From Patescibacteria group bacterium (GTDB taxonomy: Bacteria > Patescibacteriota > Saccharimonadia > UBA4664 > SCTI01): a DNA stretch of 64,000 bases. Shown here one piece after another: positions 52,270-55,016 of this stretch (position 1 is the stretch's first letter; each line of letters begins with the position of its first letter). Below the pieces are notes generated by a model. It searched no databases, was not told the origin of the DNA, and worked only from the letters and a program-made list of their open reading frames with translations. A program made the position numbers and the translations under genes. The stretch lies in NCBI GenBank assembly GCA_004297735.1, contig SCTI01000002.1, positions 160 to 64,159 of the forward strand. The letters run 5' to 3'.

Positions 52270-52289
52270 CCCTGGTGGAACTGTTGGGG
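52270..52289 (-). repeat. Degenerate copy of the tRNA-like 3' end (candidate att remnant)
   Basis: The minus strand reads CCCCAACAGTTCCACCAGGG. Compare CCCCATAGCTCCACCAGG (RNA A) and CCCCACAGCTCCA (RNA B). Read on the plus strand, it equally resembles the RNA A leader CCTGGTGGA...GGGGC. Confidence 0.5.
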
Positions 52290-52383
52290 CGCCTCTCTAA
52301 CCCAGATTCTGGCAGATAGCAGTTTTACACGCTATTTGCAGGGTGGGCATTTGACTATCGGATGGCGCTTTGCGCATGCTGAA

Positions 52384-52403
52384 GACCCACCGATCGGTGG
52401 GTC
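52384..52403. repeat. Perfect 20-nt palindrome upstream of the 61-aa gene
   Basis: GACCCACCGATCGGTGGGTC. A second hairpin, GCGGGG (52427-52432) with CCCCGC (52446-52451), abuts the RBS. Confidence 0.85.
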
Positions 52404-52467
52404 CCGAGGTCCACTGGCAAGGGGACGCGGGGCAACGTACTACAACCCCGCAAAGGAGGTGGAGTAC

Positions 52468-52653
52468 ATGGGAAAGCCAAAGTTCGACACCCAGTCGAAC
52501 AACTCGAATGCGTGGGTCGGTGTCCGCGAAGGTCAGGACAGATCATCCGGCAAGACGCATACCGAGATCATCGTGCATGACAAGAGCAACAACGATCACG
52601 CTCACGTCGGCATCGATAAGAGCGGCAATCAGATATATCGCCGTGATCGCTAA
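52468..52653 (+). CDS. GC-rich small hydrophilic protein, 61 aa
   Basis: AAAGGAGG RBS with ATG at 52468. MGKPKFDTQSNNSNAWVGVREGQDRSSGKTHTEIIVHDKSNNDHAHVGIDKSGNQIYRRDR. Third codon positions are mostly G/C. Confidence 0.55.
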   Translation: MGKPKFDTQSNNSNAWVGVREGQDRSSGKTHTEIIVHDKSNNDHAHVGIDKSGNQIYRRDR

Positions 52654-52662
52654 ATAGCGACA

Positions 52663-52683
52663 CCGAGGCCCTTCCGGCCTCGG
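52663..52683. terminator. GC hairpin between convergent islet genes
   Basis: CCGAGGCC-cttcc-GGCCTCGG, an 8-bp stem. Confidence 0.55.
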
Positions 52684-52699
52684 GCCGGGAGGGCCTCAT

Positions 52700-53026
52700 C
52701 TATACGCGGCGCGTCAGGCCATCCTCGCGAGCTACTCCCTCACCGAACGCCGATGCAATCGCGCTGTAGCGCGCGAGGAGCACCAGAGCGTTCGCAATCT
52801 CGCCATGCTCAGCCGGTACGAGAAACTCTCGCATCCACGCTGAGTTCGGAGTCGCAGCCATTATGTCCGCGAGCACAGCAGCCTCTTCGGGATCTGCTGC
52901 CGCCCAACGATCACGAATCAGCTTCGAAGCTTGATCGATCGATCGGTCATCGAAGTCGTCCTCGTCGAAGCGACGGCGCATTTCATCGCGCAGCTCGACC
53001 AAGTCTTGTAATTCACTGTTACCCAT
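52700..53026 (-). CDS. GC-rich acidic helical protein, 108 aa, unknown function
   Basis: ORF MGNSELQDLVELRDEMRRRFDEDDFDDRSIDQASKLIRDRW... is divergent from the recombinase gene. Confidence 0.55.
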   Translation of the reverse strand: MGNSELQDLVELRDEMRRRFDEDDFDDRSIDQASKLIRDRWAAADPEEAAVLADIMAATPNSAWMREFLVPAEHGEIANALVLLARYSAIASAFGEGVAREDGLTRRV

Positions 53027-53268
53027 GGCTTTATTGTCGAACAGGCCAGCGACTCATGCAAGCACGAGCGTGTCCAATCGCCCGTCCGATCGCGTCAGAG
53101 TGCTCGCTCCTGAACTTCCCGCATTCAGGCGCTTTCCGCTCGATTAAGGCCTAGGACTATCTAGGGCCCTTTGCCCTCCCTTACTACAAACGCCTCCAGA
53201 TCTGGCAAAATACGTATTGGCTTAACTACTGATACGAGCTAAGATCCTTAACGAAAGGAGGTGCACAT

Positions 53269-55002
53269 ATGAGTGAAAGTGATAAAACTGTGACTCTCGC
53301 TCAAGCGCCCAAGAAGGCGCTGGTGTATCTCCGTGTGTCCTCGGCCCAGCAGGCCGAGACCGACTACGACGTTGAGGGCTTCTCGATCCCAGCTCAGCGC
53401 GAGGCCTGCAGGCGCCGTGCCGCGGAGCTAGAAGCTGAGGTCGAAGCAGACTTCGTCGATCGCGGCGAGTCGGCCAGAAGCGCTGACCGCCCAGCCCTGC
53501 AACGGATGCTGGCCAGGCTTGAAGCCGGCGGCATCGATTACGTCATCGTCCACAAGCTGGATCGACTGGCGCGTAACCGGGCCGACGACGTCGAGATCGC
53601 GATGCGGATCAAGGCAGGCGGTGCGGTGCTGGTCTCCGTCACCGAGAACATCGATGAGACGCCATCCGGGATGTTGGTTCACGGAATCATGTCCTCGATC
53701 GCCGAGTTCTATAGCCGCAACCTGGCCTCAGAGATCGTCAAAGGCTCCCGGCAGAAGGCCAAGAACGGCGGCACGCTGACCCGGGCGCCCATTGGGTACC
53801 TGAACGTGCGCGAGTTCGTAGATGGCCGCGAGATCCGCACTATCGGTATCGACGAGGAACGAGCGCCGTACGTGCAGCTGGCGTTCGAGCTCTACGCCAC
53901 CGGCAACTACTCGCTGTCGCAGCTCTCCACGCTGCTCGAACACCAGGGGCTGCGTTCCCGGGCTACTCGCCGGCGGCCGAGCGTCCCGGTCACGGCCAGC
54001 AAGCTTCAGGCGATTCTGCGCAACCCGTACTACAAGGGCATCGTCTCCTACCAAGGCGAGAGCTTCCCCGGTCGGCATCAGCCGCTCGTTGACGACGATC
54101 TGTTTGAGCGAGTCGGCCAAGTCCTCTCCGGCAAGAAGCTCAGTGGCGAGCGGGACCGCAAGCACCGTCACTACCTCAAGGGCTCGCTCTACTGCGGCGA
54201 GTGCGGCCGCCGTCTGACGTTCAGTCGCAACACCGGCAATGGTGGCTCCTACGACTACTTCGTCTGCAGTGGCAAGCAGCGCAAGACCTGCAGCCAGGGA
54301 TATCTGCGCACCGATCACATCGAGGCTGAGGTCGAGAAGCTCTACGCGACAGTCCAGCTGACGACCAAGCAGCGCGCAGAGATCCGCCGCCTGGTTGAGA
54401 CACACCTCGATGCCATGCGGGCGGTGACCGACGCCGAAGCCAACAAAGCCACGGCTGAGATCACAAAGCTGCTGCGCGAAGAACGCAAGCTGCTTGAGCT
54501 GTACTACGCAGACCTCGTGAGCCGCGAGGCCTACGCCGAAGAGACCAAGCGGATTGCCGACGGCAAGCGGGCCGCCCAGCGACGTATTGACGAAGCTTCA
54601 GGAACTACACAGGAGCTACTCGAGGCACTCAACCGTGCGCTGGAGATGACAACCAACGCGCACAAGACCTACCTGATGTCCGACTTCACCGGACGCCGCC
54701 TAATGAACCAAATGTTCTTCAAGCGGATCGAGGTCAAGGCCGACGAGATCGATGACGTCAAGCTCTCCGACCCCTACGCCCAGCTACTGGCCCAGGACCT
54801 GCTGGCAGAAGCCGAGGAAGCCGCCAGAGAGGCCGCCGCTACCGGCGTCTGGGAGGCCCCGGAACTTCAGGCCGAACCGGCCACAGGGCCCGGAAACCAA
54901 AGAACCCTCGGCCTTTCTTTGGCCGAGGGTTCCATTAGTACTGCTGTCATGGAGCTGTGGGGATTCGAACCCCAAGCACGAAGATTATCGGTCCTTTGCT
55001 AG
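53269..55002 (+). CDS. Large serine recombinase (integrase-type)
   Basis: AGGAGG RBS. Catalytic Ser in YLRVSSAQQ and resolvase core (VHKLDRLARN). Recombinase domain, Cys4 zinc ribbon (CGECGRRL...FVCSGKQRKTC) and a long coiled coil. The last roughly 35 codons read through a hairpin and into tRNA-like RNA B. Confidence 0.88.
   Translation: MSESDKTVTLAQAPKKALVYLRVSSAQQAETDYDVEGFSIPAQREACRRRAAELEAEVEADFVDRGESARSADRPALQRMLARLEAGGIDYVIVHKLDRLARNRADDVEIAMRIKAGGAVLVSVTENIDETPSGMLVHGIMSSIAEFYSRNLASEIVKGSRQKAKNGGTLTRAPIGYLNVREFVDGREIRTIGIDEERAPYVQLAFELYATGNYSLSQLSTLLEHQGLRSRATRRRPSVPVTASKLQAILRNPYYKGIVSYQGESFPGRHQPLVDDDLFERVGQVLSGKKLSGERDRKHRHYLKGSLYCGECGRRLTFSRNTGNGGSYDYFVCSGKQRKTCSQGYLRTDHIEAEVEKLYATVQLTTKQRAEIRRLVETHLDAMRAVTDAEANKATAEITKLLREERKLLELYYADLVSREAYAEETKRIADGKRAAQRRIDEASGTTQELLEALNRALEMTTNAHKTYLMSDFTGRRLMNQMFFKRIEVKADEIDDVKLSDPYAQLLAQDLLAEAEEAAREAAATGVWEAPELQAEPATGPGNQRTLGLSLAEGSISTAVMELWGFEPQARRLSVLC
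54902..54932 (-). terminator. Intrinsic terminator for RNA B, embedded in the recombinase ORF
   Basis: GAACCCTCGGCC-7 nt-GGCCGAGGGTTC, a perfect 12-bp stem. On the minus strand it is followed by TTTGGTTT and lies 18 nt after the RNA B 3' end. Confidence 0.6.
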
Positions 55003-55016
55003 ACCAACTCAGCCCC
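54950..55016 (-). ncRNA. tRNA/tmRNA-like small RNA, copy B (chimeric: backbone 5' part, islet-borne 3' part)
   Basis: The minus strand reads GGGGCTG...TGGGG-TTCGAAT-CCCCA-CAGCTCC-A, a 7-bp acceptor with G3:U70 and a canonical T-arm. The central AAGGA-CCGATAA-TCTTC looks like an anticodon arm (GAU) but has C at position 33, and the D-arm region is too short. The leader GCCTTGGTGGTAGC (55044-55031) and GTAAAT (55050-55045) parallel RNA A. Confidence 0.45.

Follow-up and report, generated by a model that had tools for sequence, protein, structure and literature searches.

Evidence for a small serine-recombinase element inserted at the 3′ end of a tRNA-like RNA gene in a Saccharimonadia genome

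How a large serine recombinase (LSR) came to lie across the 3′ end of a small tRNA-like RNA gene is the question raised by the stretch of DNA analysed here, 64,000 nucleotides of contig SCTI01000002.1 (assembly GCA_004297735.1) from a Patescibacteria group bacterium of the Saccharimonadia, hereafter called the window. According to textbooks, integration into tRNA genes belongs to tyrosine integrases. The recombinase is encoded in a three-gene islet located between the SEDS/RodA gene (51110-52222, minus strand) and ileS (55186-58137, minus strand), and the RNA gene, called RNA B, lies at the ileS side of the islet. A first-pass annotation had described open reading frames (ORFs) of 61, 108 and 577 amino acids in GC-rich DNA between the two genes. 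These three ORFs were confirmed, and gene calls on the identical Logan contig agree with them. The data support a horizontally acquired element that carries an LSR and is inserted at the 3′ end of RNA B. We consider it likely that positions 52276-54949 are a 2,674-bp integrative element, inserted by the LSR via attP × attB recombination within the sequence TGGA of a resident RNA B.

The locus was compared with that of related genomes. In about ten Saccharimonadia genomes, the ileS stop codon is separated from the SEDS start codon by 18-75 bp, and the same TATAAT promoter precedes SEDS. The closest relatives, with SEDS proteins 85-89% identical to that of the window, have spacers of 19 bp (locus L173), 168 bp (L170 and L171) and 191 bp (L172), and neither the LSR gene nor the small genes were found in the spacers of these four loci. 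The flanking order YggT-IleS ... SEDS-L21-Big_13-sortase-ParAB is identical across the compared genomes. Relatives keep ileS and SEDS 18-191 bp apart, and the comparison establishes that the islet is an insertion relative to them. The IleS protein of the window is at most 72% identical to those of the species representatives of Saccharimonadia. As a separate observation, the ileS-SEDS spacer is variable within Saccharimonadia (L003-L082, L169-L174), ranging from 18 bp to 1.6 kb, and unrelated inserts occur in it, namely a UppS-like gene (L023), a HIT-like gene (L028) and high-GC ORFs (L009, L070).

The target is tRNA-like, but it is called neither as a tRNA nor as a tmRNA. On the minus strand, from 55016 to 54950, the body of RNA B reads GGGGCUGAGUUGGUCUAGCAAAGGACCGAUAAUCUUCGUGCUUGGGGUUCGAAUCCCCACAGCUCCA. 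It has a 7-bp acceptor stem with a G3:U70 wobble, A73 and a perfect T arm with a canonical T-loop, and it lacks the 5′ strand of the D-stem and the anticodon arm, so that it does not qualify as a tRNA-Ala. ARAGORN detected no tRNA or tmRNA anywhere in the window, and Rfam at its gathering threshold gave no match for RNA B in the window. In a permissive Rfam scan, RNA B matched only the ends of the tRNA-like domain of tmRNA (32.6 bits, as compared to a gathering score of 47). It has 22 nucleotides where the tmRNA model has 312, and neither the tag frame nor the pseudoknots of a tmRNA. RNA B is thus no bona fide tRNA or tmRNA target in the sense of Islander-type definitions; such targets are found at the genuine tRNAs occupied by other members of the LSR family. 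RNA B has a paralogue in the window, RNA A (40053-40158, plus strand), with which it has the leader, the 5′ part, the T arm and the acceptor strand in common. The 3′ end of RNA A, CCACCAGG, pairs with its own leader, CCUGGUGG. Using nhmmer, no homologue of RNA A or RNA B was found in the ileS loci of the relatives; only genuine tRNA-Ala genes were matched. RNA A has no islet and lies between a GNAT gene and rpmE (40053-40235, plus strand). A second copy of its 3′ end (CACAGCTCCACCAG, 40219-40232) is found after its terminator, 62 bp downstream. This layout resembles an attL-like scar, but the P and P′ motifs of the LSR family are absent from it.

The 577-aa protein had been taken for a large serine recombinase, and the domain searches bear this out. 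The three domains of the class are present, PF00239 Resolvase (2.5e-33, residues 17-168), PF07508 Recombinase (2.2e-13) and PF13408 Zn_ribbon_recom (2.8e-12), and the protein matches the PHROG integrase family phrog_95 (6e-97). All residues that are invariant in a 29-sequence alignment of the family are conserved, including R22-V23-S24 and the cysteines C309, C312, C333 and C341. With respect to the coiled-coil motif that LSRs have within the zinc-ribbon domain for the control of directionality, residues ~360-450 look charged and helix-like by eye, and a weak match to DUF6384 was obtained. The family is large, 5,621 of 8,000 scored candidates being homologues at E<=1e-20. The best homologue (locus L083) is 71% identical and the next ones are ~50-56% identical. 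Phage and plasmid records give ~25% identity near full length and <=~30% over partial matches; in the PDB, matches are weak only.

The chromosomal position of these homologues was then considered. At the first three loci considered, the LSR gene overlaps at its 3′ end with a tRNA-Ala gene of the opposite strand. Together with 80 loci from a metagenome scan, 83 LSR loci were available. A tRNA on the opposite strand directly at the 3′ end of the LSR gene was found in 37 of them (14 Ala, 7 Val, 5 Leu, 2 Pro, 2 Met, 2 Arg, and single cases of Glu, Phe, Ser, His and an unassigned tRNA); among the other loci, truncated contigs are frequent. The C-termini agree with this, since 103 of the 120 best homologues end in G-[LFI]-E-P, the antisense of a T arm, and 6 end in the LSN[LP] form that corresponds to attP. 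Indeed, the family consensus C-terminus MVELAGLEPATS is antisense tRNA-Ala. A common geometry is observed at these ends. A GC hairpin, found at the same position across the family, has a 3′ arm ending in GGTTYGA and is followed by 12 nucleotides, the CCA position and the reverse complement of the tRNA with the T-loop sequence TCGAACC. Among 37 loci, consisting of 36 tRNA-adjacent loci and the window, GGTT stands exactly 30 nucleotides before TCGAACC in 33, whatever the tRNA, and is one base off in two more. At the level of sequence, the class of the enzyme, the family-wide adjacency to tRNA genes and the fixed spacing are established. A serine enzyme at such a site had first been seen as an oddity of this islet; it is instead the rule for a large LSR family at tRNA 3′ ends. 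In one locus (L085), a 43-nucleotide exact copy of the 3′ part of tRNA-Ala (9685-9727) abuts the LSR gene, and the intact tRNA (12969-13041) is located 3.2 kb further, past an AbiGi-containing segment. This arrangement looks like tandem occupation of one tRNA by two elements.

In order to place the crossover, the two ends of the islet were compared with those of its relatives (Table 1). The left end, attL, reads ...CCCTGG TGGA ACTGTTGGGGCGCCTC TCTAACC CAGATTCTGG and the right end, attR, reads ...GCTGTCA TGGA GCTGTGGGGAT TCGAACC.... The window follows the family spacing, with GGTTCCA, 12 nucleotides, TCA, TGGA, 11 nucleotides and TCGAACC. The element of L083, of 4,181 bp, is inserted at a genuine tRNA-Ala gene and flanked by CAATGGTGGAG, the identity between its attL and attR stopping right after TGGAG. 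Because L083 limits the exchange to the same position, the crossover in the window can be placed within TGGA (U70-A73), assuming that both enzymes cut alike. The left end of the L083 element aligns without gaps to that of the window from TGGTGGA through GATTCTGG, and no further. A 40-nucleotide pattern common to both left ends occurs once in the window with 0 occurrences expected, so that the resemblance at the left junction becomes significant.

Six homologues have a tail of the form G(Q/H/R)LSN(L/P), and the loci of two of them, L166 and L167, show an unrecombined attP. That of L166 reads hairpin-GGTTCGA-N12-TGG-TGGA-N16-TCGAACC, and the spacing is alike in L167 (GGTTCGA-N15-core-N16-TCGAACC). 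In the four P′ arms available, from two integrated elements (window, L083) and two attP forms (L166, L167), a T-loop-like motif stands 16 nucleotides after TGGA, as compared to 11 nucleotides in the tRNA. By analogy, this 5-bp outward shift matches the standard offset between attP and attB of LSRs, the outer motif of attB being 5 bp closer to the centre than that of attP in the case of the Listeria LI integrase (Rutherford et al. 2013, PMC3783163). In view of the ungapped L083 alignment and of TCTAACC at the attP-type spacing, we read 52280-52312 as the P′ half-site of the element. Its inner part seems to mimic the acceptor strand, as it does in L166, since the same protein domain must bind P′ and B′. 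The crossover position itself would follow from the two integrated elements and the two attP forms. A small identical core, inverted outer motifs in attP and an attB motif 5 bp inward, as is characteristic of LSR attachment sites, are found in the window and also in L083, L166 and L167. Flanking direct repeats of a tRNA 3′ segment, as used in Islander-type searches, are not seen, only 4 nucleotides being shared. Two other placements were tried and rejected. Entry of RNA B together with the islet at a TGGTGGA pseudo-site by this LSR predicts junctions that do not match the sequence, and the ungapped alignment with L083 is incompatible with a P′ half-site at CTGGTGGAA.

The 3′ tail of RNA B was also considered. 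When the displaced tail CCCTGG is rejoined to 54950 onward, ...CAGCUCCACCAGGG is obtained, which forms 9 bp with the leader CCUUGGUGG, as in RNA A. The ancestral tail ...CUCCACCAGGG pairs with the leader with an energy of -17.7 kcal/mol, as compared to -7.5 kcal/mol now. The restoration of the tail:leader helix by this rejoining is therefore an independent check of the breakpoint. At present, RNA B reads CCA-UGA instead of CCA-CCA; its body is intact and its leader-pairing tail is lost.

These data suggest the following course of integration. The LSR would insert the circular element into the 3′ end of RNA B by attP × attB recombination, with the exchange inside TGGA (U70-A73). The host half-site B′ would consist of the acceptor 3′ strand and the T arm, the universal T-loop sequence TCGAACC serving as the motif of the zinc-ribbon domain. 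The attP would carry an inverted copy of this motif, GGTTCCA, 17 nucleotides to one side of the centre, and a mimic, TCTAACC, 18 nucleotides to the other side. The position of TCTAACC, 5 bp further out than the motif of the tRNA, may be the way in which the LSR tells attP from attB. The islet would supply only the CCA position, the trailer and the terminator, the body of RNA B remaining host DNA. The reconstructed attP would be made of 54895-54953 followed by 52280-52330, with a P-P′ junction at TGGA reading TCATGGAACTGTTGGGG, ...TTAGTACTGCTGTCATGGAACTGTTGGGGCGCCTCTCTAACC.... The empty site would read ...AAGACCCTGGTGGAGCTGTGGGGATTCGAACC... and an intact RNA B would end with CCACCAGGG.

The attP overlaps the end of the integrase gene, so that integration would exchange the C-terminus of the enzyme and place a hairpin terminator after the RNA. 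In the integrated form, the LSR has 577 aa and ends with ...AVMELWGFEPQARRLSVLC, its last 16 codons (from 54954) being antisense RNA B. The ORF of the circle would encode 574 aa ending with ...AVMELLGRLSNPDSGR, with a stop codon at 52316-52318. Integration would thereby swap the last ~13 residues, from ...LLGRLSNPDSGR in the circle to ...WGFEPQARRLSVLC, the antisense tRNA. In its circle form, the LSR of L083 would end with ...SLSNPDSG.... The tails of the two circles being alike, the conserved P′ DNA would also encode a conserved tail. On the RNA side, the terminator-like hairpin noted earlier at 54901-54933 was found again, with 13 pairs. Located in the P arm ~15 nucleotides past the RNA 3′ end, it would terminate RNA B after displacement of the native downstream sequence, and may thus be a replacement terminator. 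The view that the element replaces the 3′ end of its target RNA holds in so far as the islet is inserted at the 3′ end of RNA B and supplies a terminator; it does not hold for the repeats expected of such elements, attL and attR sharing only TGGA.

Table 1. Positions in the window of the proposed attachment sites, the genes and the hairpins of the islet, and of RNA B.
Feature	Position	Strand	Remarks
Displaced host tail of RNA B (proposed)	52270..52275	-	Plus strand CCCTGG = CCAGGG (CCA + trailer) on RNA strand; B side of attL
attL core TGGA	52276..52279	+	Would hold the crossover dinucleotide; sole attL/attR identity at the position conserved in the family
P′ half-site (proposed)	52280..52312	+	ACTGTTGGGGCGCCTC (16 nt), TCTAACC (52296-52302), CAGATTCTGG
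p61	52468-52653	+	Hydrophilic 61-aa cargo protein; strong Shine-Dalgarno sequence AAGGAGGTG
GC hairpin, 15 bp	52665-52697	.	RNAfold -34.5 kcal/mol; between convergent p61 and p108
p108	52700-53026	-	Acidic 108-aa cargo protein; predicted five-helix bundle
Conserved region upstream of LSR	53190-53268	+	Promoter/regulatory; ribosome-binding site AAAGGAGGTG; ~80 nt kept in L083
LSR	53269-55002	+	Large serine recombinase; 577 aa in integrated form
GC hairpin + T-rich run on RNA B strand	54901-54933	-	13 pairs (terminator scan); inside LSR C-terminal coding region
P half-site (proposed)	54928..54949	+	GGTTCCA (54928-54934) + 15 nt to core; CCA position reads TCA
attR core TGGA	54950..54953	+	U70-C71-C72-A73 of RNA B
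Host B′ half-site (proposed)	54954..54971	+	GCTGTGGGGAT (11 nt) + TCGAACC; acceptor 3′ strand, T-stem, T-loop
RNA B	54950..55044	-	tRNA-Ala-like body 55016->54950; leader 55044->55017

Several points weigh against an insertion of this kind. The T-loop motif and TCTAACC are regarded as recognition motifs because of their spacing and conservation; GGTTCGA is also in-frame coding sequence (G-S-I), and conservation of the protein could explain in part why it is kept. No recognisable motif was seen in the B half-site, on the trailer side of attB. A pattern search did not find the left ends of other elements within 10-kb flanks, the elements extending beyond. The only other assembly with the exact proteins is also occupied, with the same arrangement, and offers no empty RNA B site; nor was an intact unoccupied RNA B found in any relative examined. 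Relative to the known relatives, RNA B and the islet (52262-55032) count as one insertion.

The gene content of the islet was examined with respect to its mobility. The homology between the window and L083 is limited to 52273-52312, the P′ arm, and to 53190-54953, two segments that are contiguous in the circle. The LSR promoter, the LSR gene and attP form a conserved integration module that carries a ~0.9-kb cargo slot, occupied by p61 and p108 in the window and by a 523-aa HEPN protein and a 205-aa protein in L083. Five homologues of p108 were found (57-60% identity). At one locus (L168), a 61-aa gene whose product is 55% identical to p61 follows the p108 homologue in convergent orientation. 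A GC hairpin separates the two at the same position, and a tyrosine-integrase-like gene and helix-turn-helix (HTH) regulators lie in the neighbourhood. In the window, p61 and p108 are likewise convergent and share the 15-bp GC hairpin at 52665-52697, as the first-pass annotation had it; the hairpin is probably a bidirectional terminator. Neither protein has a match in Pfam, PHROGs or PADLOC. An AlphaFold2 model of p108 predicts a five-helix bundle (pLDDT 80.5), for which no match was found among PDB folds, and tblastn found no p108 homologue in the 85 LSR loci. On these comparisons, p108/p61 behave as a portable two-gene cassette, and their occurrence in two elements documents this portability. 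Because the pair occurs in the unrelated L168 element and L083 carries unrelated cargo, p108 and p61 are poor candidates for a directionality factor, a role for which a test had been suggested. As a guess, they may be a small accessory or defence-type pair.

Replication genes, transfer genes or a recognisable directionality factor were not found among the three genes of the islet, LSR, p61 and p108. The islet therefore does not qualify as an integrative and conjugative element (ICE) or its actinomycete form (AICE), which have their own transfer and replication genes. Its larger relatives L084, L085, L166 and L167 carry TrwB-like, Replic_Relax and N6/N4 methylase genes, together with a ~122-aa gene upstream of the LSR gene. 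Genes of ~122-127 aa lie directly upstream of the LSR gene in these loci (L084 7515-7886, L085 7509-7877, L166 9519-9887, L167 9487-9870). They are grouped by position, are absent from the window and L083, and are the best positional candidates for a directionality factor or regulator of the family. Past the unrecombined attP, L166 (11781-21698) and L167 (11720-13884) contain GmrSD, a type I restriction-modification system and DUF4411/peptidase M78-HTH genes, so that both elements look like carriers of defence islands.

The islet may be either a mobilisable cassette of minimal size or a relative, reduced in content, of the >10-kb ICE-like elements with the same integrase family. A stronger version of the latter would make it an immobile remnant of such a larger element, stranded in the genome with an LSR kept by chance or for another role. 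The islet indeed differs from L084, L085, L166 and L167 in having no directionality factor, relaxase, coupling protein or replication gene, and the CCA position of its P arm has drifted to TCA. However, its LSR ORF is intact with every family-invariant residue, and both half-site motifs are intact and correctly spaced. Moreover, L083, its closest relative, likewise combines the same module with cargo in a small cassette of 4.2 kb, which suggests a lineage of small elements and not random decay. Stranding is thus less likely than not, and the element inserted by its LSR within TGGA may still be mobile today.

A second alternative concerns the order of events. RNA B and the islet could have come together by another route, as a single 2.77-kb insertion (52262-55032). 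Such an arrival would agree with the lack of a relative with an intact RNA B, and with an imperfect direct repeat, CTTGGTGGTAG / CTTGGTAG, that flanks RNA B and the islet (window 55033-55043 and 52262-52269). The locus L172, whose SEDS protein is 88% identical to that of the window, argues against it. In L172 (5660-5720), a -10 box is found together with a leader sequence, TAAATAAGCATTGGTGG, that is homologous to those of RNA A and RNA B. This leader runs straight into ATTTTAG..., which in the window comes after RNA B, with neither RNA B body nor islet in between. This configuration is best explained by deletion, through microhomology, of an RNA B body that was present before. Furthermore, the centre of RNA B (AGGACCGATAATCTTCGTGC, minus strand; 54976-54995) is a direct copy, with 18 of 20 identical bases, of the backbone at 55122-55141 by the ileS terminator, which points to a local origin; the source sequence is conserved in L170. 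Finally, the junction at 54950 has the exact attR geometry of the family. A joint arrival of RNA B and islet is accordingly improbable. A resident target and a two-step history are favoured by the L172 remnant, by the islet-free RNA A and by the locally copied RNA B centre. As for the direct repeat itself, it suggests either that the target was duplicated in the window or that L172 underwent a deletion by microhomology, and RNA B as a whole looks chimeric, with tRNA-Ala-like ends around a locally duplicated middle.

A third alternative keeps the insertion and changes its geometry. In this reading, which follows the first-pass annotation, the islet would behave like a tyrosine-integrase island, with a crossover in the T-loop/T-stem, a junction within GGTTCGAATCC, a T arm and acceptor strand brought by the islet, and a displaced and decayed RNA B 3′ end at 52270-52289. 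The minus strand of 52270-52289 does read CCCCAACAGTTCCACCAGGG and resembles the RNA 3′ end, CCCCA(A)CAG(T/C)TCCA, and the T arm is GC-rich like the islet. Formal alignment preserved this similarity (score 9, 12 matches, 1 mismatch and 1 gap), but ranked it only at the 99.9th percentile of the window. The left copy contains one extra base between its T-stem and acceptor parts, because of which it cannot be a tRNA-type 3′ end. The same copy aligns ungapped to the end of the L083 element and continues into the P′ motif at the attP spacing. In addition, the attL/attR identity of L083 ends right after TGGAG, and P′ arms that mimic the acceptor strand are also present in unintegrated members of the family (L166). 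This geometry is therefore highly improbable. With an exchange within TGGA, the T arm and acceptor strand of RNA B would be host DNA with the junction at U70-A73, and the left junction would be mostly the P′ half-site of the element, only CCCTGG (52270-52275) being the host tail.

The base composition of the islet was also analysed. The GC content is 0.605 for 52276-54949 as compared to 0.531 for the rest of the window. Boundaries in GC content had been expected near both junctions. The right edge is sharp (0.61 to 0.43 around 54900-55200), but the left edge is gradual. The GC value of the islet is reached by 3.6% of equal-sized windows, and these cover the host class II ribonucleotide reductase gene. 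Because this equally GC-rich stretch at 60-63 kb is a host gene, composition alone is weak, supporting evidence. The GC-rich block at 60-63 kb was tried as a second island and rejected for the same reason. It belongs to the most GC-rich part of the window (62-64%; 59765-63401, plus strand), which consists of the host class II ribonucleotide reductase gene and nrdR and is syntenic in relatives. That the three islet genes are ancestral at the locus and not mobile DNA can be dismissed, even if GC content is no proof of foreign origin in view of that equally GC-rich host gene: independent precise losses would be needed in more than 15 relatives, which the comparative data contradict, LSR homologues sit at tRNA genes in unrelated high-GC genomes, and the cargo pair also occurs in an unrelated element.

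The islet can be compared with several known systems. The use of tRNA genes by serine integrases has been called rare and unproven (PMC3218068, PMC7192596); the sites were assigned in silico, and no att architecture was given. Eight serine integrases of Mycobacterium AICEs were assigned to a tRNA-Leu gene and called "rare" (Ghinet et al. 2011, PMC3218068; Bordeleau et al. 2012, PMC3429521), 14 of 297 serine-integrase (S-Int) islands were placed in t(m)RNA genes (Mageeney et al. 2020, PMC7192596), and a few LSR-bearing tycheposons have been reported. The islet resembles the Mycobacterium AICEs and the S-Int islands in having a large serine recombinase predicted to integrate at a tRNA gene. The larger relatives L084, L085, L166 and L167 have transfer genes of the ICE/AICE type (TrwB-like, Replic_Relax). 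In contrast, the islet has a non-canonical tRNA-like target, a host from the candidate phyla radiation (CPR) and no transfer or replication genes; the likeness considered is one of target and enzyme class. A small serine recombinase, that of phiRSM, integrates at the 3′ end of tRNA-Ser according to the account of Askora et al. 2011 given in PMC3218068. As there described, it shares with the islet the serine family and a tRNA gene as target, but it is resolvase-sized, lacks the recombinase and zinc-ribbon domains and belongs to another subfamily.

The phage LSRs (Listeria A118/LI, phiC31, Bxb1, TP901-1, phiFC1) have three domains, a short core and a quasi-palindromic attP, like the LSR of the islet, and an outer attB motif shifted 5 bp towards the centre (PMC3783163). 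They target protein-coding or intergenic sites, whereas the attB half-site of the islet would be a tRNA acceptor/T arm and its attP overlaps the stop region of the integrase gene. The tRNA/tmRNA islands of tyrosine integrases (Williams 2002; Islander/TIGER, as cited in PMC7192596) have the same class of target, and the displaced part is resupplied, in the present case as the terminator. Unlike these islands, the islet uses an enzyme of another superfamily and lacks a direct repeat, 15-50 nt long, of the 3′ part of the tRNA. The exchange would take place at the discriminator/acceptor end, only CCA and trailer being replaced.

A further parallel is offered by the cluster G/N mycobacteriophages, in which, as Broussard and colleagues are said to have reported in 2013, attP lies inside the repressor gene, the enzyme is a tyrosine integrase and a functional switch was demonstrated. 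There, as in the islet, attP is part of an element coding sequence and integration changes the C-terminus of a protein. In the islet, by contrast, the altered gene is that of the integrase itself, as read from sequence alone. In the literature searched, which is thin in subscription journals, no account was found of such an arrangement of att sites, of a half-site motif provided by the T-loop or of an integrase gene spanning attP.

Overall, the serine integrases at tRNA 3′ ends in the window and in ~85 related loci have an architecture that is consistent and can be read in mechanistic terms. We put forward, as a tentative generalisation, that this LSR clade is very large, essentially uncharacterised and specialised for tRNA 3′ ends. 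Its zinc-ribbon domain would read the T-loop (GGTTCGA) and its recombinase domain an acceptor end that co-varies with the identity of the tRNA (Ala, Val, Leu, Pro, Met, Arg and others). Further traits of the clade would be the swap of the C-terminus, the donation of a terminator and T-loop mimics at +5 bp in attP, and the gene of an acceptor/T-arm minihelix would be sufficient as attB. If the T-loop is the outer half-site motif, specificity would be semi-modular, with a fixed T-loop anchor and a variable reader of the acceptor end. If true, landing sites of these LSRs would exist in every genome, which bears on island prediction and on integrase engineering; current finders of tRNA islands require tyrosine integrases. 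The islet yields a concrete attP/attB pair. Very few mobile elements have been defined in Saccharibacteria, and this one also documents the uptake of DNA of higher GC content. As a genuine LSR integrative element, it combines an unusual, family-wide class of target, an unusual target in the form of a minimal tRNA-like RNA and an unusual host of the CPR.

For the host, the effect of the lost CCA and of the lost leader-pairing tail depends on the role of RNA B. Beside RNA B, a putative small RNA convergent with ileS was observed (window 55086-55175, plus strand). Its promoter, TTGACA-17-TAATCT, is located at 55086-55114, and a bidirectional terminator at 55143-55175 would form its end. Complementarity to the central loop region of RNA B is seen in its 5′ part (GUACGAGGAUUAUCGGUCCU). 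Both promoter and sequence of this putative RNA are conserved in L170 and L171, which have no RNA B.

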